From an uncultured cyanobacterium (GTDB taxonomy: Bacteria; Cyanobacteriota; Cyanobacteriia; PCC-9006; JAAUQQ01), in the NCBI GenBank assembly GCA_963718615.1, contig OY970368.1:4096001-4160000 (forward strand): 64,000 nucleotides of DNA, written 5' to 3'. Of this stretch, positions 117 through 31,760 are shown in pieces; position 1 is the first letter of the stretch, and every line of letters begins with the position of its first letter. Position numbers and translations under genes: made by a program. The notes under the pieces are model-generated. The model was not told the origin of the DNA. It saw only the letters and a list, made by a program, of their open reading frames with translations, and ran no database searches.

Positions 117-773
117 ATGCCCCCTACCAATCCAACCTCCAATCCCAGCCTAGATTCCAGCCTCAATTCTAGCGCCGTCACCCACCACCAAGGCCGCGCC
201 GTGCCCCTGGTCGGCAACGACATCGACACCGATCGCATCATCCCCGCCCGCTATCTGCGCTGTGTCACATTTGATGGCCTAGGCGAGCATGTCTTTGCGG
301 ACGATCGCACCCAAACCCAAGGCCAACATCCCTTTGACCAACCCCAGTACCAAGGGGCAACCCTTTTGCTGGTGAATCGCAACTTTGGCTGTGGGTCTAG
401 CCGGGAACATGCGCCCCAGGCGATCGCCCGCTGGGGCATCAATGCCATCATCGGCGAAAGCTTTGCAGAAATCTTCTTTGGCAACTGTCTGGCCATGGGC
501 GTTCCCTGTCTGGTCGGCTCACCCGAAACCCTAGCGGAGCTTCAGCGGCGAGTAACCGCCGATCCGACCGTAGAGCTCCAGATCGATGTGGTCAATCCCC
601 AGGTTCGCTGCGGCGATTTTTCGGCCCCCCTGAGTCTGCCTGAGGGTCCCCAGCAAATGCTCGTGAGCGGCACCTGGGATGCCTGTGGTCAACTGGTCGC
701 CCAGGCTGAGCAAATTCGCTCAACGGCGCAGCGTCTCCCCTATTTGACTTGGGATCCGGGAACTGCGGCTTAG
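117..773 (+). CDS. leuD: 3-isopropylmalate dehydratase small subunit
   Basis: [13 protein letters not shown] and [14 protein letters not shown] motifs; [11 protein letters not shown]. Confidence 0.97.
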
Positions 774-1051
774 GGATCTGGCCGGCTCAAAAGTGATGAG
801 TGCTGAAAGCTTTATCAGCTCAAGGCACTCAACCCTGTAAATTCGTTGATCAGGCCTTCAGAAGACAGTGTTTTGGGTGGCTGAGTTTGGATGGAAACCG
901 AGGATGAAGCCTCTAGATTCCTTGACTCGATGGTGAAGATTTTGTAATTTTCTACGCTGACTCAAAGAAAGTTATTATACTGAGACATGTCTAATAATAC
1001 TTACTCAAGGATGTTATCCGGCGGCTATGCCGGGATAATGCCTTGAAATGG

Positions 1052-1173
1052 GTTGTTATCATGCAATATTGCCTGGATAAGTGGCTGAGACCAGGGAGTA
1101 TACGGCGTTGGTGCTTGAGAATACCTGGAAGAGGGAGTTATCAGGCATTGTGCATAAGAATAACTTGTTAGGT
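1052..1173 (+). other. attC/attI-like recombination site opening cassette 1
   Basis: Imperfect inverted repeat (atgcaatattgcctggataa ~1061-1080 vs ttatcaggcattgtgcat ~1138-1155) ending in core site GTTAGGT at 1167-1173, 44 nt before the next ATG. Confidence 0.5.
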
Positions 1174-1217
1174 AGCTTAAATTTTTAGTGATGTCATTTT
1201 CATAGGCTCGTGTATTT

Positions 1218-2375
1218 ATGTCATGGGATTCTCCTGTCTTTAGTGTCTGTGTATCAGGTGGTTCTTGGATATGGGCTGCGTGGAACAGTACTAAGGATGC
1301 TTATGCCTTTCTGGAGAAACCTGAAAAAAATTTATCGCTTGATTGCTTGTTCTACGCTGAAGCACCCTCTAAAGAAACTGCAATCAAAACAGCCCGTAAG
1401 ATGTTGGGTACTCACATTAAACAAATAGGTAATGAGTGGGCAGAAGAAGTTTGCAAGGTAATCAATAAAAAGCCTCAAGTCACTTCTGAGGTAATTGGAA
1501 AGAAACCTTATCTTGATGCTGATGACCGTGACGTAATCACTGATGAACTTCAGAAATCTTTAGGCCAACTTCATTTGCTGACTGGATTGAGTGCCGTTAA
1601 ATCTACCGTTCAGGAGTTGGTCAATATTACAAAAGTAGCTCAGATGCAGGTTAAGGCAGGCATTAAAGCTCCTTCAATCACCAGGCATCTTGTATTCACA
1701 GGTAATCCTGGAACAGGTAAAACTACAGTGGCTAGGATTCTTGGCGAAATTTATAAAAATCTTGGTGTTTTATCAAAAGGACATTTTATTGAAGTAGACC
1801 GAAGCAATTTAGTTGCAGAATACTTAGGACAAACAGCACCCAAAACAGTAAAAGTGGTTGAAGCTGCGTTAGGAGGTGTACTTTTTATTGATGAGGCTTA
1901 CTCGCTGGTGCCAGATGGTCGCGGAGATGTATTTGGACAAGAGGCGGTCAATACACTCTTGAAAATGATGGAAGATCACAGAGAAGATTTAGTGATAGTG
2001 GTTGCAGGATACAAGGGGGAGATGTCTCGATTCATTGACTCTAATCCTGGTCTAAAGTCCAGATTTTCAAGATCAGTTCATTTTGAAGACTATTCTCCTT
2101 CCGAGTTAGCCGAGATTTTCAAAGTCAGATGTGAACAGCATGGCTATCTATTCTCAGATAAGACGCTAGAATCTGTGCGTCATTTAGTCAATCAATTTGA
2201 ACATCAAGTTGGAGAGCTTGGAAATGGTAGATTTGTGAGAAACATTTTTGATCGCTGTGTTGCTATTCAGTGTAACCGTTTAGCAGCATTAGCCAAGCCA
2301 ACAAGAGAAGACTTGAAAACCTTCCTTCCTACTGATATTCCTACTTATGAGCAACTAGCTCAGTCTCTTCTTTGA
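1218..2375 (+). CDS. AAA+ ATPase, SpoVK/CbbX family, with unknown ~90-aa N-terminal domain
   Basis: HLVFTGNPGTGKTTVAR Walker A, LFIDEAY Walker B, NPGLKSRF, LGNGRFVRN. Confidence 0.88.
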   Translation: MSWDSPVFSVCVSGGSWIWAAWNSTKDAYAFLEKPEKNLSLDCLFYAEAPSKETAIKTARKMLGTHIKQIGNEWAEEVCKVINKKPQVTSEVIGKKPYLDADDRDVITDELQKSLGQLHLLTGLSAVKSTVQELVNITKVAQMQVKAGIKAPSITRHLVFTGNPGTGKTTVARILGEIYKNLGVLSKGHFIEVDRSNLVAEYLGQTAPKTVKVVEAALGGVLFIDEAYSLVPDGRGDVFGQEAVNTLLKMMEDHREDLVIVVAGYKGEMSRFIDSNPGLKSRFSRSVHFEDYSPSELAEIFKVRCEQHGYLFSDKTLESVRHLVNQFEHQVGELGNGRFVRNIFDRCVAIQCNRLAALAKPTREDLKTFLPTDIPTYEQLAQSLL

Positions 2376-2397
2376 AATTATCAGTGTGTATAGCGCT

Positions 2398-2484
2398 ACC
2401 TAAACCAGGGCTTGTAGCGGATGGCCTTAACACTCTGGCAATCCTCGAAGACCCTTGTCACCGCTAAAGCCTCAGTCGTTAGAT
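2398..2484 (+). other. attC-like site (end of cassette 1)
   Basis: R'' ACCTAAAC at 2398; L'' ggcttGtagcgg pairs with ccgctaaagcc with one extra G; R' GTTAGAT at 2478-2484. Confidence 0.75.
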
Positions 2485-2665
2485 GCACTGAGCTCTTGAA
2501 GTGGACAGGTTACAAGATTGCATCAATAGTAAGCACCTGGTTATGGCATTCTATTAGAAGCACTTGCATCGTAGAATAGAAATCACTCACAAGCTTTCCT
2601 CCAATCCCTATCAAAAGTGTATAATTAAAGCTAATACTCCTACTGGCCAAGTGGGCAGTCATTCA

Positions 2666-3748
2666 ATGCATCCCAAAAACCCACTTTTTCAAAAATGTAT
2701 TTCTTATCTTGAACAACTACCTAGTATTAAGGCAGTTGTTCAAGGAGAACCCTATTTTTCTAGTGAAGTTTTAGCTGATGGTAAACTGGTAATTAATGCT
2801 TCAAACAAGAGCATTAACTATGTCTGTGAGATCAAAACTGGGCTTACAAATGATGTAGTAGAACAAGTAACTAAATATTTTTCCAGTTTAGGAAAAAGAC
2901 TACAGAACGATGAAAGGCCCTTACTAGTTACACGGGGTTTATCTAATCTGGTTATAGAGCAACTCTTAAAAAGAAATATAGAGTTTATAGATGTTGATGG
3001 CAATATTTATCTTAATGGCCCAGAGCTTTATGTACTGGTTCGCAAGCAAGTTTCTAAGGAAAGTGCAAGTAAATCTTTAGAAATTACTGCTGCTTCACTA
3101 CAAGTCATACATACCTTACTCAGTCAACCAAATTTTTTGGGCAGGGGGTATGATTTTGACGAAGAGGTTGCTTCTATTTCCGGTGTCACTCCGAAAACTG
3201 TGAAGAATACTCTTAAAAAACTTCAAGATTTAGATTATATCACGTACAGGCATGGAAAGTATGAAATCGTTGATTATGTCAAACTTCTTGAGCGCTGGGA
3301 GTTAGGATATTCTGAGAGATTACGTGCAAAATTAATTCTTGGAACTTTCACTCCCATCGGAAAGATTAGTTTTTCAGAAGTTGCAAATAAAATCAAAGAA
3401 GGTGCAAGGAATTACGGTTATCTAATAGGTGGCGAGCTTGCCGCTTCAATAATGACTGATTATCTTCGACCTATTAGTGCAACTTTACATCTCAGTAATG
3501 ATTTTGATAGTCGTGAATTAGCAGTCAATTTGAAGCTAAAGCCTGATCCTGATGGTGTTATCACATTTCTTCAAACTTTTGGCAAGTTTAACTATCACCA
3601 AAATGAAATTGGGGAATTTCAACAGACTCTAATTAATCCATTGTTTATTCATGCAGAACTAGTGCGAACTGGAAACAGCCGATTAAAAGAAACAGCCGAA
3701 CTTATCTACGATAGATATATTGAGGAATTGGCACAAAGGCATGATTAG
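2666..3748 (+). CDS. type IV toxin-antitoxin AbiEi-family antitoxin (wHTH-containing)
   Basis: FIDVDGNIYL, central HTH (SGVTPKTVKNTLKKL), LIGGELAA, INPLFIHAEL..G..R..ETA typical of AbiEi_2/DUF2186; overlaps the downstream nucleotidyltransferase. ATG 2666 preferred over the TTG at 2564. Confidence 0.8.
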   Translation: MHPKNPLFQKCISYLEQLPSIKAVVQGEPYFSSEVLADGKLVINASNKSINYVCEIKTGLTNDVVEQVTKYFSSLGKRLQNDERPLLVTRGLSNLVIEQLLKRNIEFIDVDGNIYLNGPELYVLVRKQVSKESASKSLEITAASLQVIHTLLSQPNFLGRGYDFDEEVASISGVTPKTVKNTLKKLQDLDYITYRHGKYEIVDYVKLLERWELGYSERLRAKLILGTFTPIGKISFSEVANKIKEGARNYGYLIGGELAASIMTDYLRPISATLHLSNDFDSRELAVNLKLKPDPDGVITFLQTFGKFNYHQNEIGEFQQTLINPLFIHAELVRTGNSRLKETAELIYDRYIEELAQRHD

Positions 3749-4520
3749 CTCTAATGAAAAGCAAGTTTTAGCTGATCTAATCTATATTGTTAGCTCATTA
3801 GACTTGCCAATGATGTTAGTTGGCGCAGGAGCTAGGCTTTTGATATTTGACCAGAGGTTTGGAGAAGGAAGAGGAACAAAAGACTGGGACGTGGCAATTT
3901 CCATAAATGATTGGGGAGCCTATCAAAAACTCTGTGAATTCCTAACAACTGGTGATTCGCCACGATTTAAATCAACAAAGAATTCCCACAAATTTATACA
4001 TATTAAAACTAAAATCGAGGTCGACATAGTTCCGTTTGGTGAAATTGGCGAGCCAGATCAGAAAATTGTCTGGTCTGACAGTGGTAATTCGATGAATGTT
4101 TCAGGCTTTACGGAAGCTCTCTTACATGCAAAAACTACTGTTATTGATGATTTGGAAATCCCAGTGGTTGACACGCCAGCTTTTGTTGTTCTTAAAATCT
4201 TTGCATGGGGAGATCGTGGAGAACGTACAAACAAAGATTTAGAAGATATTGAATTTATTTTATTGAGGTATGAAGATGATGAGCGTGTGTATTCTGAACT
4301 AGCAGGAGAACTTGCTGATGGAATCGTTGAATTTCTCGATGCTAATATTTACTTGCTTGGTCAAGATATTTACAAAATACTTCAAGACAAAACTCTGATC
4401 GAACTTGATTTACTATTGAATAAATTGATTGAAAGTTTAAGAACTGACAATTCTGAATCGTTGGGCTACAAGTTAAAAGTCTTTCAGGCAGGGATTCGCT
4501 CTTTATATCCGCAAGCGTGA
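3741..4520 (+). CDS. AbiEii/AbiGii-family nucleotidyltransferase toxin
   Basis: LVGAGAR...RGTKDWDVAI (G..A / DxD NTase motif), VDIVPFGEI, LKIFAWGDR...KDLEDI; translationally coupled to the antitoxin. Confidence 0.82.
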   Translation: MISSNEKQVLADLIYIVSSLDLPMMLVGAGARLLIFDQRFGEGRGTKDWDVAISINDWGAYQKLCEFLTTGDSPRFKSTKNSHKFIHIKTKIEVDIVPFGEIGEPDQKIVWSDSGNSMNVSGFTEALLHAKTTVIDDLEIPVVDTPAFVVLKIFAWGDRGERTNKDLEDIEFILLRYEDDERVYSELAGELADGIVEFLDANIYLLGQDIYKILQDKTLIELDLLLNKLIESLRTDNSESLGYKLKVFQAGIRSLYPQA

Positions 4521-4606
4521 TCTAAAATGCCCATGCATCCGATCGCCCAAAAGCTACCTGTACAGATCTTGAGGTTATCTGCGGCGGGTGATGGGTAACG
4601 TTATTT
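4520..4606 (+). other. attC-like site (end of cassette 2)
   Basis: R'' ATCTAAA directly at the toxin stop; tgcccatGcatccg pairs with cgggtgatgggta with one extra G; R' GTTATTT at 4600-4606. Confidence 0.75.
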
Positions 4607-4621
4607 ACTTTTTCTAGAATC

Positions 4622-4987
4622 GTGAAATACAAGAATATTCGAGCTGCCATTCACAATTTTGGGCACTCTTTCATGAGTGACATGAACTATATTGCCGAAG
4701 ACTTCGTTCGTAATGATTTAAAGAAAATACATCGCAAAGGCGAGAATATTGTAATCGATTGGCTGACTGGAACTTTTAATCCTTCCAATCATGTAAACGA
4801 TCGAATCATCCAGTCCATTCATCTCTGGAGAGATCGATTGCCTAAGGATCTTGAATCGCTTCAGGTAGATGCTTCAAAACTTCAGCGTCTAGTCATGAGT
4901 TGGCCAGCTAATAGTCCTTCTCAGATCATGCAAGCCACCGACGATCGGGGCAAAGACTACAGCATTGAAATCACGAAAACGCTTTAG
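4622..4987 (+). CDS. hypothetical protein (cassette-borne)
   Basis: 121-aa ORF with GTG start 15 nt after the attC R' site; natural composition; no motif recognised. Confidence 0.65.
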   Translation: MKYKNIRAAIHNFGHSFMSDMNYIAEDFVRNDLKKIHRKGENIVIDWLTGTFNPSNHVNDRIIQSIHLWRDRLPKDLESLQVDASKLQRLVMSWPANSPSQIMQATDDRGKDYSIEITKTL

Positions 4988-5073
4988 GGGTATCATAACA
5001 AGATGGATCGGGATGGTCGGCCTTGTGTAGTAATGAAGCCAATCAGGATTGTCCTTTCGGGATGAGTAATGAC

Positions 5074-5373
5074 TCAAAAAGGCTTAGGGAAGCTTCCAAT
5101 CACAAGATTTGTGCCTGTTTTCCAAGCAACCTTTGCAACATTATCGATAAAGTCAAATTCTGGCTTAGAAGCATGGAAGGGGCGAAGGCCAAGATCTTGA
5201 ACCTTATATTTGATTTTTAGTTTTAGATTTTCAGGCAACTGAGTAATGCCCAACTCTGATGCCTTCACATTTTTGATCCAGAACTCATTACAGAAAAAAG
5301 GTGGCTTGTCAAAAAGAGCTGCCTGTAGGGTGCCGTTTTTCTCAAAGAACTTGATTTCATGAACGTATGCCAT
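5074..5373 (-). CDS. hypothetical protein
   Basis: 99-aa ORF with ATG preceded by GAGG (minus strand) and a GTTGGAC core-like site. Confidence 0.6.
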   Translation of the reverse strand: MAYVHEIKFFEKNGTLQAALFDKPPFFCNEFWIKNVKASELGITQLPENLKLKIKYKVQDLGLRPFHASKPEFDFIDNVAKVAWKTGTNLVIGSFPKPF

Positions 5374-5474
5374 GTGACCTCGCTGAAGTCCAACAATATG
5401 ACTGCAATTCCTTATACTACGAGAATCGTAATAACTCCGGACTTTAAAAATAAAATTTATTCGGGAAGTCTAAA

Positions 5475-7304
5475 CCCGGATATCTCACCAGTGCCGAGGG
5501 ATCGGGGTCACCAACCAGCGAGAATGTAATAACCACAAGACATTCAGCGGTTTGCAAAGATGGCCCCGACCCAAACAGAGTGTAACTTGCCAAGCTACGA
5601 GTTTGGACGCCTGAATCAACGCAAGATAGTAGCGAACTTTAGCGGTGGTGAGCTCAGCAGTGATGGAGGGCTGCTGCTAATTCGAGAAATCGACCAGCTA
5701 TATCGAATCAGTGAGCGGCTGTCCGAGTGCTTTACGGATCACCGCGATGGCAGCCGGGTGCAACATGAATTGAAAACGCTGCTCGGGCAACGGCTTTATG
5801 GATTGGTGCAAGGCTACGAGGACGTGAATGACCATGACGACCTTCGGCATGAGCGATTATTTGGGGTAGTTCTGGGTCAGTTAGAAAGCCAGCATCCGCG
5901 CTGTGCACCGTTAGCGGGCAAGAGCACCCTCAACCGATTGGAGCAAGCGATGCATGTCCCCCGCGACTTGTCAGATTCGCGCTACGTGAAACTGAGCCTG
6001 GACCCGGCTGCCATCGAGGCGCTCTTGGTGGAGCTATTCATCGAACAACTCGAAGGTGAACCGAAACAAATCATCCTGGACATGGATGTCACCGATGACC
6101 CCACCCATGGCACCCAGGAAGGTTCAGCGTTCAATGGGTATTACCGCCATGACTGCTACACCCCGTTGCTCATCTTCAGTGGTCGCCATTTGTTGAGTGC
6201 AAAACTGCGACCGGCCAATGTGGACCCCGCAGCGGGAGCGTTAGAAGAACTCCAACGCATCGTGGCTCAGATTCGAGGTCATTGGCCGAAGGTGAAGATT
6301 CTGGTGCGCGGCGATAGTGCTTACAGCCGAGATGACATCATGCTGTGGTGTGAAGGTGAAGCCCAGGTGGACTTTGTTTTTGCCCACAGCAGCAATGAGC
6401 GCTTGCGCCAATTGACTTGGGGGTTAGAACAGCGAGCCAAAGCCGTTTATGAGGCCCAGCGCCAAACGGTTGCTGCCACCTTAGAACCTCTGTTAGAGCA
6501 GAGTGCAAGTGAACTAGAGGCTGAACTCAACCGCTTGGTTCCGCCCCAGGTTTGGCATCAGTCCTTGAGCTATGCCACGCTTAAATCCTGGAGCTGTGAG
6601 CGTCGCGTCATTTGCAAGCTCACCTACGATGGCAATGGCCCACGTCGCCATTTCGTTGTCACCTCTTTGACAGCACAGCAGGCCCATCCCGCTCACCTTC
6701 ACCGCGATTATTACTGTCCGCGAGGAGAGATGGAAAATCGCATCAAGGAGCATCAGCTTGACCTCTTCAGCGACCGCACCTCCACCCATGACTTTGAAAG
6801 CAATCAGCTCAGACTCTGGTTTTCATCCTTCGCCTATGTCTTGATGCAGGCCCTGCGCCTCAAGGCACTCGCCAAAACTGAACTCGCTGATGCGACTCTG
6901 GGCACCATTCGACGCAAGCTGCTCAAGCTTGGCGCACAGGTTCGCATCTCTGTCAGGCGCATTCTCGTCGCATTCACTTTCGCTTCGCCCATACAAACCC
7001 TCTTTGAAGCGGCAGCACAACAGTTGCGCAGACGACTCCCTAGGCCAGGATAGACCGATGAGTAGAACTCTAGCCTTTCGCTCCGACTTTAATTCAACGA
7101 CTCTCCAAGGGTGAGATTACACACCCTTGCTTTGACCTGCTCAAAATCTGCCTGAAGCCCCATATCTAGAGCACAATGACTACCTTTACAGCATAGACAG
7201 CCTGAAAGATGCCTCAGGCATCCTCTATTGCTCGAGTCAACAGACTGCTCATCTCATTTCGGGCAAGCCTGATACTCTCTATCCGCCCTGGTGAGAAATC
7301 CGGG
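5475..7304 (+). mobile_element. IS1380-family insertion sequence
   Basis: 17-bp TIRs CCCGGATATCTCACCAG (5475-5491) and CTGGTGAGAAATCCGGG (7288-7304), 16/17 match; CTAAA direct repeat at 5470-5474 and 7305-7309. Confidence 0.93.
5560..7053 (+). CDS. IS1380-family DDE transposase
   Basis: SSDGGLLLIRE, AGKSTLNRLE, ILDMDVTDD, VRGDSAY, YCPRGEMENRIKE, NQLRLWFSSFAY. Confidence 0.95.
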   Translation: MAPTQTECNLPSYEFGRLNQRKIVANFSGGELSSDGGLLLIREIDQLYRISERLSECFTDHRDGSRVQHELKTLLGQRLYGLVQGYEDVNDHDDLRHERLFGVVLGQLESQHPRCAPLAGKSTLNRLEQAMHVPRDLSDSRYVKLSLDPAAIEALLVELFIEQLEGEPKQIILDMDVTDDPTHGTQEGSAFNGYYRHDCYTPLLIFSGRHLLSAKLRPANVDPAAGALEELQRIVAQIRGHWPKVKILVRGDSAYSRDDIMLWCEGEAQVDFVFAHSSNERLRQLTWGLEQRAKAVYEAQRQTVAATLEPLLEQSASELEAELNRLVPPQVWHQSLSYATLKSWSCERRVICKLTYDGNGPRRHFVVTSLTAQQAHPAHLHRDYYCPRGEMENRIKEHQLDLFSDRTSTHDFESNQLRLWFSSFAYVLMQALRLKALAKTELADATLGTIRRKLLKLGAQVRISVRRILVAFTFASPIQTLFEAAAQQLRRRLPRPG

Positions 7305-7356
7305 CTAAACAGTCTGGCTCTCCTGAATTCACAATTTCGTGCAAGAAGTCTATTAT

Positions 7357-9777
7357 TCAGGGTTGGTTTAGTAACTGGAAAACTTGCTGAACCAACAACT
7401 CTGCATCAACCGGCTTAGACAAATGATACTGAAATCCAGCAGCTTTCGCCTGTTGCCCATTTAGCTCCCCGGCGTAGGCCGTGAGGGCGATCGCCCGAAT
7501 CCCCCCCCCCTGCGCCTCGGGCAACGCGCGAATCTGACGCAAGAGACCATAGCCATCCATATCCGGCATCCCAATATCACTCACCATACCGTCAAAATTA
7601 CCATTTTCCAGCGCTTGGAGCGCCGCCGCCGCCGAACTGACCGCCACCACCTCAGCTCCAACAGCCTCCAGCACAAAGGTCACAAAGATCAAGGCATCGG
7701 GCTCATCATCCACGATCAACAACCTATAGCCCGTCAAAGTTGTAGGCACAGCCGAGAGCACACCAGCAGACAAACTCCCTTGATCCACCCGTGACGGCTT
7801 CGGTCGCGCCATCGGCAATAGCACCGTAAACGTCGTACCACAGCCCTCCCCAGGGCTTTCGGCCTGCACCGTTCCCCCATGTAGCTCCACAATTTGCCGC
7901 ACGATCGCCAATCCCAGCCCTAGCCCACCAAATTGCCGCGTCGTTGCACTGTCGGCCTGACGAAAATAGTCAAAGACATAGGGCAAAAAACCCGGCGTAA
8001 TGCCCTTGCCGGTATCGCAGACTTGCAGTTGAGCCTGATGATTGATCTGGATCAAGCTCACCGTTACCTGTCCCTCCGCCGGGGTAAACTTCACCGCATT
8101 CGAGAGCAAATTCCACACCACCTGTTGCAATCGCCCCTCATCTCCCATGACCGGATTTACCCCTGAAGACAGTTCTAGCCTCACCTGAATGGCTTTCGCT
8201 TCTGCCGCTAGTCGCACCGTTTCATTCGCCGCTCGAATGGTCGTCGCCAAATCAACCCGCTCAACCTTCAGCTCCAGCTTGCCCCGCAAAATCCGCGACA
8301 CATCGAGCAAATCATCAATCAGCTGCACCTGCAACCGAGCATTACGCTCGATAGTTGCCAAAGCCTGCTCCGTTTTTTCCACCGGCAAGCGTCCGCTGCG
8401 CAAGAGCTGAGTCCAGCCAATGATCGGATTAAGCGGCGTGCGCAGTTCGTGGGACAACACAGCTAAAAACTCATCCTTAATACGATTAGCCCGTTCCGCC
8501 TCTTCCCGAGCTGTTTGTTCGTGACGCAACAAACGCGATCGCTGCGCCTCAATTTGTTTTTGGTCTTCAATATCCGTTGCCGTTCCAAACCATTTGAGCA
8601 CTTGCCCCGCTTCATCCTTGAGTGGCACCGCCTGGTGTAAATGCCAGCGATATTCTGCTTGGCCCTGGGTGACTCGCCGCAGTCGTCCTTCCGCCTGATA
8701 GCGTTGACCGGTGGTTTGGGCCATCGCCCAGTTCGCTTCCAAGGCCGGCAAATCCTCAGGATGCACAATATTATGCCAACCCGCCGTTCGAGCCTGCTCC
8801 GCACCCAACCCCGTATAGTCCAACCAGCGCTGATTAACATCCAGCAAGTCCCCCTCGGCACTGGCAGTCCAGACCAACTGGGGAATCGATTCGGTGAGAT
8901 AACGATAGCGTTCCTCGCTCTGCCGCAGCTGGTCCTCAGCGCGTTTGCGCTCAGTAATTTCTTGGCAAACAATGCTAATTCCCGTCACTTGTCCTTGGGC
9001 ATCCTGAAGGGGATACCAGTTTTCTAGCCAAATACGATGGATACCGGGCTGGGCTGGCGTTTCTCCTGCAATTTCTAGGTTTAGAAGCGGTTTTCCACTG
9101 TCCAAGACCTGTCGCAGCAGAGGTTCCGCCTCATCCGCCAGCTTGGGCAACACCTCGCGGATGCTCCGCCCTAGGTGTTCTGGCACCGACAGACCGTTGA
9201 TGTCCGCCAGCTCTTGATTAATCCGTTGAAACCGCAGATCCCGATCCAACACCCCTAGACCAATGGGCGCACTTTGGTAGATCGACTCGATTTCCGTCAG
9301 TTGAGCCCGAACGATTGCTTCACTGCGGCGGAGGGACTGTTCGGCCTGTTTGCGATCGCTAATATCAATCCCCGAGGGAATCAGATGGGTCACCTGACCG
9401 ACTTCGTTGAAAATGGGGACCAGGGAAAAGTCGATGATCAAAAAGCGATCGCTCGCCAACCGCACCTGCACATCGTAGCGAACCATCTCGCCCTGGGCCG
9501 CCCGCTCAATGGCCTGCCGTAGCTGGGCCTGAATGTCGCTATCGTAGGCCCACCAATAGGTTTGATCAAAGGGTTTTCCCAACACATCCTCAGGCTGAAG
9601 CGACGCGGCTTCTAGGGCGGTGCGGTTGGCCTCGATCAAAATGCCGTCGGGCGTCATAATGCCGACAAAGCTCAGCAGACTATCGAGAATCAGGCGCAGT
9701 CGCTGTTCGGTTTCCAGGGATTTGGGGAGGAGGGATTCGGATGAAGCTGAGGCAGACAAAAAGGACGGATCAGACAT
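7357..9777 (-). CDS. hybrid sensor histidine kinase (3 PAS/PAC, HisKA, HATPase, receiver)
   Basis: FLAVLSHELRTPL H-box, NLLSNAVKFT, DTGKGI, GGLGLGL, C-terminal VDD...SDIGMP...K receiver; start may extend to 9885. Confidence 0.95.
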   Translation of the reverse strand: MSDPSFLSASASSESLLPKSLETEQRLRLILDSLLSFVGIMTPDGILIEANRTALEAASLQPEDVLGKPFDQTYWWAYDSDIQAQLRQAIERAAQGEMVRYDVQVRLASDRFLIIDFSLVPIFNEVGQVTHLIPSGIDISDRKQAEQSLRRSEAIVRAQLTEIESIYQSAPIGLGVLDRDLRFQRINQELADINGLSVPEHLGRSIREVLPKLADEAEPLLRQVLDSGKPLLNLEIAGETPAQPGIHRIWLENWYPLQDAQGQVTGISIVCQEITERKRAEDQLRQSEERYRYLTESIPQLVWTASAEGDLLDVNQRWLDYTGLGAEQARTAGWHNIVHPEDLPALEANWAMAQTTGQRYQAEGRLRRVTQGQAEYRWHLHQAVPLKDEAGQVLKWFGTATDIEDQKQIEAQRSRLLRHEQTAREEAERANRIKDEFLAVLSHELRTPLNPIIGWTQLLRSGRLPVEKTEQALATIERNARLQVQLIDDLLDVSRILRGKLELKVERVDLATTIRAANETVRLAAEAKAIQVRLELSSGVNPVMGDEGRLQQVVWNLLSNAVKFTPAEGQVTVSLIQINHQAQLQVCDTGKGITPGFLPYVFDYFRQADSATTRQFGGLGLGLAIVRQIVELHGGTVQAESPGEGCGTTFTVLLPMARPKPSRVDQGSLSAGVLSAVPTTLTGYRLLIVDDEPDALIFVTFVLEAVGAEVVAVSSAAAALQALENGNFDGMVSDIGMPDMDGYGLLRQIRALPEAQGGGIRAIALTAYAGELNGQQAKAAGFQYHLSKPVDAELLVQQVFQLLNQP

Positions 9778-10114
9778 ACGGAGCATACATAAAGCGCTAA
9801 AAAACTCCCTATGATGGAAGTCATACCCCAAGGCGCAGCGAAATTCTCGATCGAGAGAAATTTTGTCCTCTGTAGGGGTGTGCATTCCACGCCCAATGCA
9901 GGAATCTGGGATGCACCTCCATCGGCCTGAGGGTCGGGAATACCGCCCCCTACAGAGTTTTTATTCAAGCCTCGTTCCTAATAAGCCATTTTTCTATCCT
10001 ATAGCGGTAACAATCTGCAAGATATCTCTCCTGGGGAAGATGTTCAAAATCAAAATTTCAAAATTGCCTTGGGCAATCTAAAAGCAGTATTGCCCCTTTG
10101 CTCCCCTGCTGACT

Positions 10115-13600: not shown

Positions 13601-14605
13601 TTAGGCGGTTTCCGGCCCCTGCTGAACAATCCAGTAGCTGACCTGGAACAGATCGCTGGCATCGCTCCAAGCCTCTTGGACGGTAAATCCGGCTTGCTGG
13701 GCCAAGGCTTCTAGCTCTGCTGGGCTGTACTTATAGGAATGCTCTGTCCGCAGATGCTCTCCGGCGGCAAAGCGAATTGTCTGATCCAGAATCTCAACGG
13801 TCTGGTTGGCAAGGCTGACCAAATACATTTCAATCCGGCCCAGGGACTCGTTATACACCGCCTCATAGCGAAACCGCTTGAGGTCAAAATTAGCCCCCAG
13901 CTCTCGATTGATTCGCTCCAATAGATTCAGCGCAAAGGCAGCGGAAACCCCAGCGGCATCATTGTAGGCCGGTTCCAGTATGGCCTTAGATTTCTTCAGA
14001 TCCACACCCAAGAGCAAACCGCCCCCCTCACCGACCAACCGCGCCACATTTTTTAGAAAATGCACTGCCTCCTGAGGTTCCAGATTTCCCAGGGTAGAGC
14101 CGGGGAAAAAAGCCGTTTTGCGTCGGTTTTGTAGGATCGGCAGGTCGGGAAGCGTGAGGGGTTGGGTGTAGTCGGCGCAGAGGGCGATCGCCTCGATCTC
14201 GGGATAATCCTGGGCCAACTGCTCGCAGGACTCCTGCAAATGCTGCTTAGAAATATCCAACGCCATATACACCGGCAGTTTTGCACCGGTTTTCTGGAGC
14301 GCATCCAATAAAATTCTGACCTTCTGGCTACTGCCGCTGCCAAACTCGATCAGAATGCCATCGGTGAGGCGATCGCCAATCTCACGGGCTGCATGGGCAC
14401 GCAACAGCTCGATTTCGGTACGGGTCAAATAGTATTCCGGCTGCCGAGTAATCTCAACAAACAGCTCTGCCCCCGCTTTGTCGTAGAGCCAAGTCGGAGG
14501 AATATGCTTAGCCGCCAGACCCAGCCCCTTTAGCACCACAGAGCGAAAATCTTCAAGCACGGGATGGAAATCGAACAGTTGAATCGAGGCGGTCACAGAG
14601 ATCAC
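13601..14605 (-). CDS. egtD: L-histidine N-alpha-methyltransferase (ergothioneine biosynthesis)
   Basis: PEYYLTRTE, EFGSGSSQK, FFPGSTLGN, AYNDAAGVSAAF, TEHSYKY; adjacent to egtB. Confidence 0.94.
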   Translation of the reverse strand: MISVTASIQLFDFHPVLEDFRSVVLKGLGLAAKHIPPTWLYDKAGAELFVEITRQPEYYLTRTEIELLRAHAAREIGDRLTDGILIEFGSGSSQKVRILLDALQKTGAKLPVYMALDISKQHLQESCEQLAQDYPEIEAIALCADYTQPLTLPDLPILQNRRKTAFFPGSTLGNLEPQEAVHFLKNVARLVGEGGGLLLGVDLKKSKAILEPAYNDAAGVSAAFALNLLERINRELGANFDLKRFRYEAVYNESLGRIEMYLVSLANQTVEILDQTIRFAAGEHLRTEHSYKYSPAELEALAQQAGFTVQEAWSDASDLFQVSYWIVQQGPETA

Positions 14606-14774
14606 AGTTGACTGTTGTCAATTATACGGTTTTGCTCCCCTTGGAGGCAGGCTGAGGATAAAATTCATCCGCCATTTCGCGTAGGGGCCTTGAGTCTTCA
14701 GGGCTGCGGGCCTTGCTTCCCCAAGCCCCCTGAGGTATTGGTAGGTATTGGGCCAGGAATTATTGGGCTAAGAA

Positions 14775-16094
14775 TTATTGGGCCAAGCGAATGCCCATAA
14801 ATTGCCAGCGACTGGCCGGTGGAAAGAAATTGCGATAAGTGACGCGAATGTGGTTCCGGGGAGTGGCGCAGGATCCGCCCCGTAACACCCGTTGGTTGCA
14901 CATAAACTTGCCGTTGTATTCGCCGATCGCCCCAGGGGCAGGTTTAAAACCGGGATAGGGCAAATAGGCACTTTGGGTCCATTCCCATACATCACCGAAG
15001 AACTGCTGCAGCCCAAAAACACTTTCGGTCAGGGGTTGCGCCTGGGGATGAAAGGTTTGGCTTTCGGCAAAGTTTCCAGTCATGTTCCCAGCCAAGGTCC
15101 CGGCGAGAGGGTTGGCGATCGCCCCAGTCTGCGCCGCCACTTCCCATTCCACTTCCGTCGGCAACCGTTTCCCCGCCCAGCTCGCATAGGCATCGGCTTC
15201 AAACAGGCTGACGTGGCAAACGGGTTCCTGCAAATTGAGCGGACGCATGCCTCCCAGCGTCATCACCTGCCACTGGCCCTCGATTTTTTCCCAATAGAGC
15301 GGAGCCTCCCAGCCTTCCCGCAGCAGGGTGTGCCAGCCTTCCGAGAGCCAATGCTGGGGCTGTTGATATCCCCCCGCTTCGATAAATTCGAGATATTCGC
15401 CGTTGGTGACGGGGCGGTTGGCGATCGCAAAGTCCTGCACATAGGTCCGATGGCGAGGTCCTTCATTGTCAAAGGCAAAGTTGTCAAAGGCAAACTTATC
15501 AAACGTAGACCCCGAACCCGCCCAGCCAATGTCTACGAGCCCCCCGGCAAACGCCTCAAACCGCAAGGGTAGCGCTGAATCCACCCGATTTTCCCGCAAA
15601 TCCTGTCGATAGGCCGGTCGCAGCGGATTGATCGCCAAAATATGCTTAATATCCGTGACCAACAATTCCTGATGCTGTTGCTCGTGGTGCAGTCCCAGTT
15701 CCAGTAACGCCGCAATCTGCGGTTCTTCCCCTCGCTGCTTCAGCAGGGCTTTCATGGCCTCATCCACATAGGCCCGATAGCCATAGACCTCCTCCACTGT
15801 CGGGCGAGACAGCAGGCCACGCTGGGGGCGAGGATGCCGGTCTCCCACAGCCTCGTAGTAGGAGTTAAACAAATAGCCAAACCGAGGATGGAAGCACTGA
15901 TACCCCGGCAAAAACGGCACCAGCAAAAAGGTCTCGAAAAACCAGGTCACATGGGCCAAATGCCACTTCGGCGGGCTAACATCCGGCATGCTTTGGACGA
16001 TATAATCCTCGATCGCCAGGGGCCGACAGAGCGCTTCACTCCAGGCCCGGACTTGCAGATAGCGATCGCACACCCCATAGATCAACGTAGACAT
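14775..16094 (-). CDS. egtB: ergothioneine biosynthesis sulfoxide synthase
   Basis: QSMPDVSPPKWHLAH, HHEQQHQEL iron ligands, FGE-sulfatase C-terminal domain (GDVWEWT, YNGKFM, YRNFF); start may be 16115 or 16160. Confidence 0.93.
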   Translation of the reverse strand: MSTLIYGVCDRYLQVRAWSEALCRPLAIEDYIVQSMPDVSPPKWHLAHVTWFFETFLLVPFLPGYQCFHPRFGYLFNSYYEAVGDRHPRPQRGLLSRPTVEEVYGYRAYVDEAMKALLKQRGEEPQIAALLELGLHHEQQHQELLVTDIKHILAINPLRPAYRQDLRENRVDSALPLRFEAFAGGLVDIGWAGSGSTFDKFAFDNFAFDNEGPRHRTYVQDFAIANRPVTNGEYLEFIEAGGYQQPQHWLSEGWHTLLREGWEAPLYWEKIEGQWQVMTLGGMRPLNLQEPVCHVSLFEADAYASWAGKRLPTEVEWEVAAQTGAIANPLAGTLAGNMTGNFAESQTFHPQAQPLTESVFGLQQFFGDVWEWTQSAYLPYPGFKPAPGAIGEYNGKFMCNQRVLRGGSCATPRNHIRVTYRNFFPPASRWQFMGIRLAQ

Positions 16095-16310
16095 ACCCAA
16101 CGACTCAATAAACATCAACGCAATATCGATCGAAAGATTCAGAGATTCGCAATCAAACAATCAAATTTAATTTTGACCGATGGGCTCGATCTACTGGTCC
16201 TAATGGCGGGCCTAATGGCCTAATCTAGACAAAGCGCTTGCCCAAGCTCCAGCCCCAACGCTAGACTGATGAACTGTGACTTTTAGCAACCTGAGCTGGA
16301 GAAAGCTCCC

Positions 16311-25582: not shown

Positions 25583-27367
25583 TTAGAGTTTTGCAGACTG
25601 CCAAGCGGGCTGGTACTGATATTGAGCAAATTCCATGCGCATTTCCTGCATGTCTGTGTTCTTTGGCAGATGCTTAGTTTTTGACAGATAGATTTTTTCA
25701 CCTATGACCGATTGACCTGACAAAACAAGTAAGCGGAAAAAGTGATACATGTGGCGAGGATTCAACAAGCCTCGAACGCCAAACCCCTTCCATTGAAATT
25801 TCAAGTACCAAATTGCAATAAACAGGTAGGCATGCTTCATTCCCGCAAATACATTGCACCGCAGTGGTTCAAACTTGGCGTTTTCAAGGAAGTGATCAAA
25901 ATGATTCAGAGGACTATAGTCTCCAATCAATTGATCTGCTCGATAAGCATCCATTAAGCCAATATTTTTTCCACTTTCAACCAGTTGATTAAATTGCTCG
26001 TACACATCAACAAACAAGCCTTTCATATTGGCAGGAAGCAACTTCAAAAACTTATTGACAAAGGTAAGATTGAGATGCCATTTACCGACATACATGGGAA
26101 CATGAACACCAAACCACCACATGTACTCAAAATAGACACGCCAACTCATGACACTAGCATTACCTAACTGCTTGTCATGGAAACGAATCAGATGATTGAC
26201 ATTCTCTGCATAGGCTAGATTAAAGCGATTATAGGCTGAACGCTTTGTTTCGGCATCTGCTTCGCCCATCAATTTAGCGCGAATAATTTCAGTAATCCCC
26301 TCAACGGCAAATGCAATAGTTGTCGTTCCATAGGAATAGAAAGCATCGAAAATGAAGGCAGAATCTCCAAGAACATACCAGTTATTAGGGGAGAACATCT
26401 CCTTACTCTTGTAGGCCACTTTAGGTCGATAGTGGAAATCAATATCGTCGCCTGATTTCACTAAATTGTAGAGGATCTTATGGTTAGCCTCTAGGAAAGC
26501 GTAGAACTTATCCTTGGTGTTAATCGACTGCGCAGGAATCACATCATGGTGATGGATAATACCAATAGATAACTCCATTGATTCACGGTCTGTGGGAATC
26601 ATCCATAGCCAGTGACCCTGACCAAAAAAATGATTGGTTGCATAATAGCTACTGGTAGTTGCACGATTGGGATCATAGCCTTTGTCAAATAATGTCCGAT
26701 CAACATTTTTAACGCGAACCCAAGTGGAACCAGTATTCAGACCGTACAGTTTTTCGCGATCGGTAATCACATTGTCGGTTTTGTTGCCAATGATAAAGTT
26801 GCGTCCAGCAGCATCAACCACGTGCTTCGCAGAAAGCTCAAGTAATTCGTCACCCAGTTTCACCTTGACCGTCTTAATTGCATCGCCTTCCGTTAGGTCC
26901 ACATCCACAACGCGGCCATTATAGAATATAACTCCCATCTCCTTATTCATCGCAAGTACATCGCGCTCAAATTTGGCCCGATTCATGTGAAAAGAGGCGA
27001 TCGCAGTCTGACGATTTGACCAAACATGGTAATAGTCATCAAGCTGCTCAGTACTACCAACCTGTTTAGGCCAGTGAAAATTAAGACCAGCTTTGGGTGT
27101 ATGATTTTCAATCATATATTCATGTAATCCCAGCTCCTTACACACAAATAAAGCTGCAACCTCGACCATTGATTCACCAATCTTCATATCCTTCACCTCT
27201 CGCTCCTCTGGTCGAAAATCAATCAGAGCAACTCTAATATTCGGGATATTGAGCATTAGGTGTCTTGCCTGACAAACGCCAGCAAAACCAGCTCCCATGA
27301 TCACCACATCATAATCATGCGAAACAGCAGAGTTGAAAGATTTCTCAAGTACTTGTATCGTATTCAT
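25583..27367 (-). CDS. flavin-dependent halogenase-like oxidoreductase (paralog C)
   Basis: GAGFAG, KIGES, PKAGLNFHW (catalytic Lys position), WLWMIP, GDSAFIFDAFYSYG. Confidence 0.8.
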   Translation of the reverse strand: MNTIQVLEKSFNSAVSHDYDVVIMGAGFAGVCQARHLMLNIPNIRVALIDFRPEEREVKDMKIGESMVEVAALFVCKELGLHEYMIENHTPKAGLNFHWPKQVGSTEQLDDYYHVWSNRQTAIASFHMNRAKFERDVLAMNKEMGVIFYNGRVVDVDLTEGDAIKTVKVKLGDELLELSAKHVVDAAGRNFIIGNKTDNVITDREKLYGLNTGSTWVRVKNVDRTLFDKGYDPNRATTSSYYATNHFFGQGHWLWMIPTDRESMELSIGIIHHHDVIPAQSINTKDKFYAFLEANHKILYNLVKSGDDIDFHYRPKVAYKSKEMFSPNNWYVLGDSAFIFDAFYSYGTTTIAFAVEGITEIIRAKLMGEADAETKRSAYNRFNLAYAENVNHLIRFHDKQLGNASVMSWRVYFEYMWWFGVHVPMYVGKWHLNLTFVNKFLKLLPANMKGLFVDVYEQFNQLVESGKNIGLMDAYRADQLIGDYSPLNHFDHFLENAKFEPLRCNVFAGMKHAYLFIAIWYLKFQWKGFGVRGLLNPRHMYHFFRLLVLSGQSVIGEKIYLSKTKHLPKNTDMQEMRMEFAQYQYQPAWQSAKL

Positions 27368-27562
27368 GTTCTCTCCTCTCCAAAGGAAATAAGATGTAAG
27401 TTTGCGTTAGAGGTGTGAGGTTCGATCGCAGGAGGGTAAATTACCGCTTCAGCCTAAGTTACTTAGCTCAGGCTGAATATCCTAAGGTCATCAATCACAG
27501 TAGATTTGGCTGGGGCATAGCATAACTAGGAAATAGCATGACTAATCCGCCTTCAAAGAACC

Positions 27563-29407
27563 TTATTTGAAGGCATACTCCTTAATAGATTCATCTTCTG
27601 TCATTGATGGATTCTGGGTAGTAAACTCTGTCATCCAAGATTGTAGTTCAGGCTTATATTGATAAGACTTGAACTCCTGACGCATTTCATCGATGTAGCT
27701 ATTGTTCGAGAGATTTCTTGTCTTGAACTTGTACACCATCTCTCCAATCGCAGATTGCACAGTAAAGCCAATTAGCACCAACAGGTAGTAAAGATTAGCA
27801 AAATTTAGGAAACCCTTGACTCCAAACCCTTTCCAAAGGAATTTCACGTACCAAACTGCAACGAAGAAACAAGTATTCTTAATACAGGCAAAGACATTGC
27901 AGTGAAGAGGCTCAAGTTTGGTATTTGCCAAGTAGTTATCGAACTGTTTAGGAGTATAGTATCCCCAAAGCAATTGATCAGCCCGATAACAGTCCATGAG
28001 CCCAAGATTGGCATCTCGCTCAACTAACTGATTGAATTGTTTATTCACATGGGAAAACATACCATCAATTTTCTTGTTGATGCCCAAGAAAATTGAAATA
28101 AAGGTTTGATCGATATGCCACTTACCAACATACATGGGAACCATCATTCCAAACCACCACATGTACTCCCAATAAATACGCCAACTCATAACACTCGCAT
28201 GACCTAGCTGCTTGCCATGATCGCGATAGAGGTAATTAACCGTCAAAGCAAAAATCAAATTGAAACGGTTAAATGCTTCTCGTTTTTCTTCGGTATCAGA
28301 CTCACCCACGAACTTTGAGCGAATGATTTCAGTGACGCTCTCGATCGCGAGAGTCACAGTAGAGGTACCATAAGAGTAGAAAGCATCAAAGATGTAAGCA
28401 GCATCTCCAATGACATACCAGTTGTCTGGTGAAAACATGCGCTTACTCTTATGGGCAACCTTAGGCCAATAGTGGTAATCAATCTTCTCACCACTTTCAA
28501 TCAAGTTATACAGCAACTGGTGGTTACGTTTCAAAAAGTCGAGGAACTTCTCCTCAGTATTGACTTCTTCGGAGGGTAGTTGGTCATGATGATGCATCAT
28601 GCCAATCGAAACTTCCATGGTTTTTGTATCGATCGGAATCATCCACAGCCAATGGCCATGCCCAAAGTAATGATTGGTAGCATAATAATGACTGGTCGAT
28701 GAGTTCTTGGGATCATAGCCACTATGGAAAAGACTACGATCAACACCACGCACTCGCATCCAGGTGGAAGCATTATTTAATCCGAGCAGATTCTCGGGAC
28801 CCGAAAGGACATTGTCTTTCTTCCGCCCAATGATGAATCGGCGTCCTGCTGCATCAATCACATGCTTACAGGTTAGGTAAATCACCTCTCCCTTAAGATT
28901 AATTTTGACCTTCTTAGCTTCATCACCTGGGGTCAAGTCAACATCATCAACTCGACCATTGTAAAACGCAACTCCCATTTCTTGGTCCATCTTGAGTAAA
29001 TCGCGCTCTAGCTTAGCTCGATTCATTTGGAATGCAGGGATCGAAACCTGGCGATTAGACCAAATATGATAGTAATCATCCAAATTTTCTGTCTGATTTG
29101 CAGTTTTAGGCCAATGAAAATTTAGGCCAATTTTAGGAACATGATTTTCAATCAGGTATTCATGAAGACCTAACTCTTTACTTAAAAACAAGGCAGCAAT
29201 TTCAATGGTTGATTCTCCGATTTTAAGATCCTTGTCACCCCGATCAACTGGACGCGGATCAACTAGTGCAACCGTTATACCAGGAATCTTCAGCATCAAA
29301 TGACGAGCTTGGCAAAGTCCTGCAAAACCCGCACCCATAATGACCACATCATAATCATGAGATGAAGTATCTTGGGTCAAGACATCGTGAGTCAGAGTGC
29401 TAATCAT
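27563..29407 (-). CDS. flavin-dependent halogenase-like oxidoreductase (paralog B)
   Basis: GAGFAG, KIGEST, PKIGLNFHW, WLWMIP, GDAAYIFDAFYSYG. Confidence 0.8.
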   Translation of the reverse strand: MISTLTHDVLTQDTSSHDYDVVIMGAGFAGLCQARHLMLKIPGITVALVDPRPVDRGDKDLKIGESTIEIAALFLSKELGLHEYLIENHVPKIGLNFHWPKTANQTENLDDYYHIWSNRQVSIPAFQMNRAKLERDLLKMDQEMGVAFYNGRVDDVDLTPGDEAKKVKINLKGEVIYLTCKHVIDAAGRRFIIGRKKDNVLSGPENLLGLNNASTWMRVRGVDRSLFHSGYDPKNSSTSHYYATNHYFGHGHWLWMIPIDTKTMEVSIGMMHHHDQLPSEEVNTEEKFLDFLKRNHQLLYNLIESGEKIDYHYWPKVAHKSKRMFSPDNWYVIGDAAYIFDAFYSYGTSTVTLAIESVTEIIRSKFVGESDTEEKREAFNRFNLIFALTVNYLYRDHGKQLGHASVMSWRIYWEYMWWFGMMVPMYVGKWHIDQTFISIFLGINKKIDGMFSHVNKQFNQLVERDANLGLMDCYRADQLLWGYYTPKQFDNYLANTKLEPLHCNVFACIKNTCFFVAVWYVKFLWKGFGVKGFLNFANLYYLLVLIGFTVQSAIGEMVYKFKTRNLSNNSYIDEMRQEFKSYQYKPELQSWMTEFTTQNPSMTEDESIKEYAFK

Positions 29408-31669: not shown

Positions 31670-31760
31670 TTTAGTTTTGTTCGCTAATTCTGTTGAAGTT
31701 AAAAGGCTTGAAGAAGTCAAGATCTGGGAAGATCATGTTCAAATGTTTCGCTCGGAAAAT

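Follow-up and report, generated by a model that had tools for sequence, protein, structure and literature searches.

A cassette array without an integron integrase, probably a static remnant, carries an AbiE-type gene pair in a cyanobacterial chromosome

How does a run of integron-type gene cassettes come to lie in a cyanobacterial chromosome with no integrase gene beside it, and can the cassettes still move? The question is raised by a stretch of 64,000 nucleotides (64 kb), here called the window, from an uncultured cyanobacterium (assembly GCA_963718615.1, contig OY970368.1, positions 4,096,001 to 4,160,000 of the forward strand). A first account made from the letters alone, the sequence-only reading, had described two attC-like recombination sites and proposed an integrase-less cassette array with defence-type cargo. 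The array consists of two complete cassettes and a third unit with a half-site (table 1). The genes of the foreign block that holds it encode an AAA+ ATPase, an AbiEi_2-domain protein, an AbiEii-like protein and a 121-aa open reading frame (ORF), and all are on the plus strand. The explanation favoured here, with good confidence, is that window positions 1167–4606 are a set of clustered attC sites without an integron integrase (CALIN), inside a foreign block of about 4.7 kb between leuD and a histidine-kinase gene, and that this array was transferred pre-assembled and is now a static remnant. The published CALIN definition (PMC4889954, which also records integrons in Cyanobacteria) fits because at least two attC sites lie within 4 kb and no intI gene, intact or remnant, is found in the 64 kb.

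The two sites, S1 and S2, are built alike. Each is 87 nt long, they start 2,122 nt apart, and each carries an L box of 5 bp, a bulged G and 6 bp, with a variable centre between the arms. In S1 the stretch GGCTT-G-TAGCGG (2409–2420) pairs with CCGCTAAAGCC (2461–2471); in S2 the stretch CCCAT-G-CATCCG (4530–4541) pairs with CGGGTGATGGG (4585–4595). The spacers between R and L boxes are 4 and 6 nt in S1 and 3 and 4 nt in S2. S1 begins 22 nt past the ATPase stop codon, and the R'' box of S2 overlaps the stop codon of the AbiEii-like gene. Measured against RYYYAAC and GTTRRRY, the R'' and R' boxes of S1 match at 6/7 and 7/7 positions and those of S2 at 6/7 and 5/7. The strings quoted in the sequence-only reading all lie where it had placed them (GTTAGGTAGC at 1167–1176, GCTACCTAAA at 2395–2404, GTTAGAT at 2478–2484, ATCTAAA at 4520–4526, GTTATTT at 4600–4606 and ATAAC at 4995–4999), and both the R''/R' cores and the single extra G of each L box were recovered by direct check and by a rule-based scan. 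When six cyanobacterial sites are compared, both partners vary in 7 of the 12 L-box pairs; the share of paired cells is 84.7%, and controls with slid partner columns give 30–40% (six sequences).

The rule-based scan looked for RYYYAAM, followed 45–170 nt downstream by GTTR, and for an L box whose 5' arm contains one bulge. Over both strands of the window (128 kb) it returned two matches, exactly S1 and S2. Simulated 64-kb sequences from a first-order Markov model (60 for each setting) gave a mean chance expectation of 0.12 matches at window composition and 0.07 at island composition for an L box of at least 11 bp, an optimistic estimate since the rule was devised after S1 and S2 were known. 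On 95 kb of resistance-plasmid DNA the same scan gave exactly two matches, the attC sites of aadA1 and aacA4, and it missed the attC of blaVIM-4, whose R'' reads GCATAAC. A covariance model, R1, trained only on the six cyanobacterial sites, served as a stand-in for the attC model of IntegronFinder; a Cyanobacteria-specific attC model also exists (Ghaly et al. 2021, PMC8352920). With default filters R1 recovered its six training sites and nothing new in 607 kb, the window and the related loci together. When the filters were off, the aadA1 attC ranked first among its matches in 4 kb surrounding the R100 integron, and in the proper orientation (18.9 bits, E = 7.7e-4, followed by a match at E = 1); in 59 kb the aacA4 attC was the sole non-training match at E ≤ 1 (21.6 bits, E = 0.0019). 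In the window, again with filters off, only S1 and S2, both of them training sequences, fell below E = 1, and nothing else fell below 1.2.

The strongest evidence comes from comparison of junctions. A total of 160 AbiEi relatives were found, their named sources overwhelmingly cyanobacteria; an alignment of 28 of them was used in one scan of representative genomes, which gave 44 loci. The 300 nt upstream of the start codon were compared in 38 loci, and the region downstream of the AbiEii stop in 31 loci with an intact downstream ORF. The loci that matter most here are L001 (Oscillatoria sp. CS-180), L002 and L003 (one metagenome-assembled genome, MAG) and L004 (a Thermosynechococcaceae MAG). 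A G|TTAGAT start, in which the bar marks the crossover, is common to the window and three of the 38 loci (L002, L003 and L004). To the left of the G the flanks are unrelated (9–13 of 39 positions identical); to the right, 27–33 of 40 positions agree among L002–L004. An orthologue of S2 follows the AbiEii stop directly in 3 of the 31 loci (L001, L003 and L004). The end points of blastn alignments fall at the same junctions: homology between the window and L004 starts at 2478, that with L001 ends at 4600 and that with L003 ends at 4603. The orthologous sites of L003 (2983–3070, ATCTAAC...GTTAGAT) and L004 (2197–2286, ATCTAAC...GTTAGGC) are canonical. The AbiE pair is therefore an integron cassette, because a unit bounded by G|TT sits between different neighbours in different loci. 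These junctions, the canonical orthologues and the lack of intI in the window uphold the proposal of a cassette array without an integrase. Searches with the rest of the block were less productive: when the whole island was compared with plasmids by blastn, matches were confined to the AAA core (65–74% identity), and tblastn of the ATPase gave nothing above 60% identity.

Cassettes inserted by an integrase carry a further mark. The start of a cassette is complementary to its own R'' because the integrase exchanges the folded bottom strand between G and TT. The sequence-only reading had claimed this relation for each cassette, in part only for cassette 3, and by counts made by eye it holds for two. 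The start of cassette 1, TTAGGTAGC, is complementary to its own R'' flank GCTACCTAA (2395–2403) at 9/9 positions, against 5/9 to the neighbouring R''. The window copy of cassette 2 scores 6/6 with its own R'' and 4/6 with the neighbouring one, and cassette 3 reaches only 4/6 with its own end. The R'' flank of cassette 2, GTGATCTAA (4517–4525), is complementary at 9/9 to TTAGATCAC, the start seen in L002–L004, relative to which the window copy has an extra G (TTAGAT-G-CAC). At the level of the start itself, a 12-mer, GTTAGATGCACT, is found at window 2478–2489 (AbiE), at L003 3064–3075 (HicAB) and in the qacEdelta1 cassette of R100 (L045, minus strand, from about 13481 downwards); this may be chance or a preferred extended R box.

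No integron integrase was found near the array. A recombinase domain was absent from the 39 of 43 non-nested window ORFs of at least 110 aa that were searched (four overlapping longer ORFs were left out). With IntI1 translated from R100 as query, tblastn gave no window match at E ≤ 10 and, over the 44 loci, only two chance-level matches, in L011 and L013. Nor is there an intI remnant in 774–1217: stop-to-stop ORFs inside 800–1166 are at most 57 aa, and tblastn was negative. From the leuD stop (773) to the first crossover (1167/1168) there are 394 nt, and the first cassette is not adjoined by intI as it is in a complete integron.

The DNA to the left of the first cassette nevertheless has some features of an integron's attachment site. 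The leader holds three direct repeats with a GTTATC core (1009–1038, 1051–1080 and 1126–1147), and a 13-mer, AATAACTTGTTAG, is present as a single copy in the window and as one more among 50 loci (L002, 919–931), in both cases at the 5' junction of the first cassette. In attI1 of R100 the corresponding elements are GATGTTATGG, GATGTTACGC and CCTAAAAC-AAA-G|TTA, and the leader repeats with AATAAC-TT-G|TTAGGT resemble their layout of DR2, DR1, L and R. attI1 adjoins intI, whereas the attI-like core of the window has no intI nearby. The leaders of the window, L002 and L004 have no homology beyond 9–13 nt at the junction. By analogy with attI1, the 1157–1173 core may function as an attI. Direct repeats also occur at the junction in L004, where three CTATCCGTCTATATGCC-like copies lie at 60–160, at the very start of a 195-kb contig, the last of them overlapping the G|TTAGAT crossover.

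At the other end the array is incomplete. The sequence-only reading had pointed to a third site, of which the ATAAC at 4995–4999 is present and only the 5' half exists. The strict scan, a relaxed scan and R1 found no third complete attC in the window. Unit 3 has neither L' nor R', and its site is considered truncated because the R''-like TCATAAC and an L''-like stretch are followed by no GTTR on the plus strand of 4980–5474, up to an insertion sequence (IS).

The cargo proved to be of the kinds first named, an AAA ATPase, an AbiEi/AbiEii pair and an ORF without a family. The label of defence-type cargo is warranted for the AbiE pair only. The ATPase scores below the cut-offs of TIGR02881, TIGR03922 and TIGR02880; its relatives are full-length, 63–96% identical and in many cases from named cyanobacteria. 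Comparison with the IetAS defence system gave 1.7e-11 (42 bits) for the PADLOC IetA model and 31 bits for IteA against a cut-off of 510, and the cassette holds no partner gene (IetS protease). To call the ATPase defence cargo is not justified. Assignment of the pair to AbiE is sound at family level, as judged from sequence and a structural model. PF08843 is matched by 19 of 19 aligned AbiEii relatives at E ≤ 0.1 (best 2.6e-8), and the AbiEii-like protein of the window also matches PADLOC PDC-M21B (4.5e-8). Its AlphaFold2 model has a pLDDT of 90.8, and its best matches in the PDB are the MenT1 toxin and other nucleotidyltransferases (E = 1.5e-5, TM-scores 0.46/0.60); a profile search of the PDB with the AbiEii alignment gave a chance match only (E = 0.078). 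In most of the 38 loci a TATAAT is found equally far from the ATG, which suggests that the pair has its own promoter; a generic promoter scan omits the 2618–2625 box, and no −35 match was found.

The third ORF has relatives of about 120 aa in a patchy spread of Gammaproteobacteria and Bacteroidota (Pseudomonadales, Winogradskyella, Enterovibrio, Xanthomarina, Endozoicomonadaceae). Such a patchy distribution is typical of cassette genes. Its database form has 104 aa (ATG at 4673); relatives of about 120 aa align over 97–100% of the 121-aa reading, and the GTG at 4622 is probably the right start. A 32%-identical relative lies within an array of Photobacterium sp. GJ3, which lends weak support only. 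That array (L049, 4267–11646, on a 1.69-Mb replicon) has four repeats like those of the Vibrio cholerae integron, starting ATAACAAAC, and is of the chromosomal integron type in a record that carries no annotation. A Mycetohabitans copy of the ORF has no attC-like flank.

How often did the cassette form of the AbiE pair arise? In a midpoint-rooted tree of 38 AbiEi proteins, the window, L002–L004, L001 with its decayed site and L005 with none form one clade of six (support 94/84, moderate for this node), and the other 32 of the 38 rows sit in non-cassette contexts. The window and L001 are sisters (100/98). The AAA change in S2 is common to both in the alignment of these sites, and in L001 the R' has decayed further to GACATAT; the change in S1 is independent. 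The tree thus suggests that the cassette form arose once, in one subclade, and then decayed at least twice (L001 and L005). The clusters of L002, L003 and L004 are small, integrase-less and next to housekeeping genes (for a GXWXG protein, glutamine synthetase and KdpA, respectively). Beside the AbiE unit, L004 has one encoding DUF6985. L003 has a further upstream site, GTCGAAC...GTTAGAT, after a DUF4145 ORF, and two more weak R1 matches with filters off. This second integrase-less cluster (L003, 1–5100) runs in the order DUF4145, AbiE, HicA/HicB and DUF6888/DUF6887 and abuts the glutamine synthetase gene; at about 4530–4707 the 3' end of HicB is partly duplicated, together with its attC-like site.

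The course of events can be proposed in outline. (i) The cassettes would have been assembled elsewhere by an integron integrase. (ii) This enzyme would have folded the attC bottom strand into a hairpin and exchanged strands between G and TT. (iii) The pre-assembled piece, consisting of the attI end, the leader and the cassettes, would then have arrived by horizontal transfer. (iv) In the present genome the array would be a static remnant, because no intI is nearby, the C of AAC has been lost from R'', the last attC is truncated and an IS1380 element stands at the edge. The AAA change is predicted to leave the C by the cleavage point unpaired in the folded bottom strand. (v) The AbiE pair, as far as its sequence tells, is probably still functional as a module of addiction or abortive infection that contributes to the retention of the block. 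Both R'' boxes read AAA for AAC, as first noted, and the orthologues of L003 and L004 read AAC. In attC_aadA7 a non-complementary triplet, with the mismatch at the middle position, lowered recombination from 2.2e-3 to 6e-6 (Frumerie et al., PMC2811028). By extension the AAA-for-AAC change would reduce the activity of S1 and S2, the attC_aadA7 mismatch lying at a different position of the triplet, and the cassettes may reasonably be considered locked in place.

Several observations weigh against this explanation. With AAA for AAC, the R'' boxes of both sites depart from the strict RYYYAAC consensus, and the R' of S2, GTTATTT, departs from the consensus at two positions. Folding of the bottom strands, which the sequence-only reading had recommended, gave the expected shape for the minimum-free-energy structure of S1 (R stem, internal loop, L stem with bulge), and energies no better than those of shuffled sequences (z = −0.36 for S1 and +0.24 for S2); all fold z-scores lie between −1.33 and +0.37 and are uninformative either way. 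The central parts of both sites pair poorly. Comparative support is limited to cassette 2, cassettes 1 and 3 resting on structure and on the boundaries shared with it. No integrase was seen in any of the four cassette-form loci, and the link to IntI comes from site anatomy alone. R1 missed the blaVIM-4 attC of L047 and so recovered 2 of 3 intact textbook sites, and the assignment was made with comparative junctions and home-made models rather than the IntegronFinder covariance model. Finally, the AAA change is common to the window and L001, and still the two diverge immediately beyond the G of R', so that a crossover after the change is possible, contrary to a loss of mobility. Some of these points would suit an ordinary genomic or defence island unrelated to integrons, with hairpins that resemble attC by chance or act as terminators. 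In favour of such a reading are the fold energies equal to shuffles, the non-consensus R'' cores and the lack of an integrase, as well as the AbiE relatives, which are mostly in non-cassette contexts (all but 4–5 of the 38 loci). It is very improbable even so: at both ends the similarity to three other loci stops precisely at G|TT, the cores of orthologous sites are canonical, own-end complementarities extend over 9 nt, R1 finds the aadA1 and aacA4 attC sites, and neither hairpin is followed by a T-run or listed by a terminator scan.

The remaining alternatives accept the cassettes and differ over their history. The array may not be dead: its cassettes could still be moved by an IntI encoded at another place in the 6.1-Mb genome or on a mobile element, the leader serving as an orphan landing pad of the attI type. 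Replicons that encode IntI are reported to hold about half of CALINs, and CALIN cassettes may be mobilized in trans (PMC4889954). The 13-mer at the first-cassette junction of both the window and L002, the attI1-like layout of repeats, L and R in the leader, and the divergence of the window and L001 directly after the G of R' all agree with continued activity. This is unlikely, since the AAA mismatch lies beside the cleavage site (the attC_aadA7 drop, at another triplet position, being the precedent), only half of the third site is left, so little is common to the leaders of the window, L002 and L004, and no intI was seen in the 607 kb. Slightly less probable again is that there never was a complete integron here or in the donor, and that single cassettes were inserted stepwise in trans at a secondary site, by the attG route that yields single attC sites lacking integron-integrases (SALINs) and small CALINs. 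Integrases do insert cassettes at genomic GWT, and many CALINs have two cassettes and no intI pseudogene (bioRxiv 10.1101/2022.09.11.507474); the clusters by housekeeping genes in L002, L003 and L004 are likewise small and without an integrase. Before the first G|TT, however, some 370 nt have the low GC of the cassettes, so that cassette 1 is not in contact with host DNA; the junction is an inverted AAC-TT-GTT core with direct repeats, not a bare GWT; and at the right end low-GC DNA continues past a truncated attC, which would suit a fragment better than it would insertion step by step. A transferred, now static CALIN thus remains the preferred account.

As a CALIN (PMC4889954), the array is typical in that two or more attC sites lie on the same strand within 4 kb, the ORFs are co-oriented with them, no intI is nearby, the size is small and an IS stands at the edge; it differs in its AAA R'' boxes and in having kept a leader with an attI-like core. 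The sites share with the textbook attC sites of aadA1 (In2/R100) and aacA4 the order of R'', spacer, L'' with one extra base in the 5' arm, L', spacer and R', including an R' of GTTAGAT. Under the same script the aadA1 and aacA4 sites show the same pattern of L-box bulge, which lies 9 nt after the TAA in aadA1 and after 9–10 nt in the window sites, and the 3' spacer and R' of S1, TCAGTC-GTTAGAT, are close to TCAAGC-GTTAGAT of aadA1. On the top strand a G bulges out in the window sites and in the blaVIM-4 attC, and a C in aadA1 and aacA4. The textbook sites are shorter (60–72 nt against 87 nt) and read AAC, not AAA, in R''; the centre of the window sites is poorly paired and their spacer partly base-paired. 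The SALIN/attG situation (10.1101/2022.09.11.507474) has cassettes outside an integron platform by housekeeping genes, as here, and differs from the two complete cassettes, truncated third, co-transferred low-GC leader and inverted AAC/GTT core, which is more than a GWT.

For the cargo, the closest parallels are the toxin–antitoxin (TA) and defence cassettes of chromosomal integrons (bioRxiv 10.1101/2024.07.02.601686) and of mobile ones (10.1101/2024.07.02.601719), in which a TA or Abi module likewise forms a cassette with its own promoter; weak promoters are described for TA cassettes of chromosomal integrons in the former, the main text of which does not contain 'AbiE'. The HicAB and DUF4145 units of L003 recall such arrays. 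The systems described there belong to Vibrio and other Proteobacteria and are large arrays with intI, whereas the present one is a tiny orphaned array in a cyanobacterium. With AbiE/MenAT type IV TA systems the pair shares the order of antitoxin then toxin, a 4-codon gene overlap, the AbiEi_2 domain and a nucleotidyltransferase fold nearest to MenT1. It differs in a toxin that scores below the PF08843 cut-off and aligns to its structural matches at the modest TM-scores given above, and it would be a distant cyanobacterial branch, known here from sequence and model.

The setting of the array is that of an ordinary horizontally acquired island for this genome. The window is part of a cyanobacterial chromosome; its GC content is about 55%, and GCGATCGC motifs are frequent in it. 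Near position 800 the GC fraction drops from 0.61–0.63 to 0.41, and the block (~800–5474) averages about 39% (range 37–43%). The IS1380-family element at its right edge is complete, with inverted repeats at 5475–5497 and 7282–7304 (23 nt, 87% complementary). Its landing postdates the block because a 5-bp target duplication, CTAAA, flanks it at 5470–5474 and 7305–7309. A GTCTAAA at 5468, in the flank of the IS, was considered as an R'' candidate and rejected, having no matching R'. The 99-aa ORF on the minus strand (5074–5373) has no match in Pfam, NCBIfam or PADLOC and no usable Atlas match, and its status as a gene is without support. Elsewhere in the window, 13601–16160 (minus strand) holds an EgtD-like histidine methyltransferase gene (PF10017, 1e-108) beside one for an EgtB-like DinB_2/FGE-sulfatase protein, an ergothioneine biosynthesis pair. 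A polyketide synthase (PKS) cluster occupies 25583–53912, with genes for a KR-DH-thioesterase multidomain protein, a KS-AT protein, a 2127-aa modular PKS, an aminotransferase and others, and with three flavin-dependent halogenase paralogues (25583–31720, minus strand). Parts of it have 38–45% GC, and it is a probable second acquired island.

Table 1. Features of the cassette array and its surroundings in the window.
Feature	Position	Strand	Evidence or remarks
Left host flank: leuD-like gene (isopropylmalate dehydratase small subunit, aconitase C-terminal domain)	117–773	+	PF00694 1.7e-18; ~61% GC
Low-GC leader, part of foreign block	800–1166	+	GC 0.41–0.43; no family-bearing ORF
attI-like core AATAAC-TT-G|TTAGGT	1157–1173	+	G|TT crossover 1167/1168 = 5' boundary of cassette 1
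Cassette 1 (AAA+ ATPase)	1168–2478	+	3' boundary G2478 set by cassette 2 comparisons
AAA+ ATPase, SpoVK/CbbX/EccA type; N-terminal ~110 aa without family	1218–2375	+	PF00004 5.5e-18; PF17866 (AAA_lid_6) 5.3e-12
attC site S1	2398–2484	+	R'' ACCTAAA 2398–2404; L'' 2409–2420 (bulged G2414); L' 2461–2471; R' GTTAGAT 2478–2484
Cassette 2 (AbiEi/AbiEii pair)	2479–4600	+	both boundaries confirmed against L001–L004
Extended −10 box TGTATAAT, candidate cassette promoter	2618–2625	+	TATAAT at constant distance from ATG in most of 38 loci
AbiEi-type antitoxin/regulator (helix-turn-helix + AbiEi_2)	2666–3748	+	PF09952 9.1e-20; PF13545 7e-6
AbiEii-like nucleotidyltransferase, putative toxin	3741–4520	+	PF08843 18.1 bits, below 22.5 cut-off
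attC site S2	4520–4606	+	R'' ATCTAAA 4520–4526; L'' 4530–4541 (bulged G4535); L' 4585–4595; R' GTTATTT 4600–4606
Unit 3: ORF 4622–4987 + 5' half attC	4601–5030	+	R''-like TCATAAC 4993–4999, then AAGAT-GGAT-C-GGG
121-aa ORF, no family	4622–4987	+	relatives ~120 aa
Remaining low-GC island DNA, including 99-aa ORF (5074–5373, minus strand)	5031–5474	.	low GC
IS1380-family insertion sequence, right edge of island	5475–7304	+	transposase NF033539 3.7e-111, 497 aa; host-like GC
Right host flank: hybrid PAS/histidine kinase/receiver protein	7357–9885	-	domain search

What the locus may say about the phylum goes beyond the single array. It is conceivable, if doubtful, that filamentous and thermophilic-type cyanobacteria spread TA and defence cassettes over many tiny arrays without an integrase, each with its own attI-like pad (AATAAC-TT-G|TTAG and upstream repeats) and served in trans by a rare or transient integrase. 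If so, orphan attI sites, and not just attC clusters, would form a dispersed system of cassette capture in the phylum, and the change from AAC to AAA would be a recurrent fixing of a useful cassette. In itself the element is of a known kind, a small CALIN that is probably immobile, and this cyanobacterial example is probably new. Comparison of junctions is by itself enough to recognize and verify a cassette array in a cyanobacterial chromosome, and an AbiE-type TA pair is identified as cassette cargo. The loci together offer a small natural series, from canonical attC through mutated R'' to lost site, which could be used to ask how cassettes become fixed genes.

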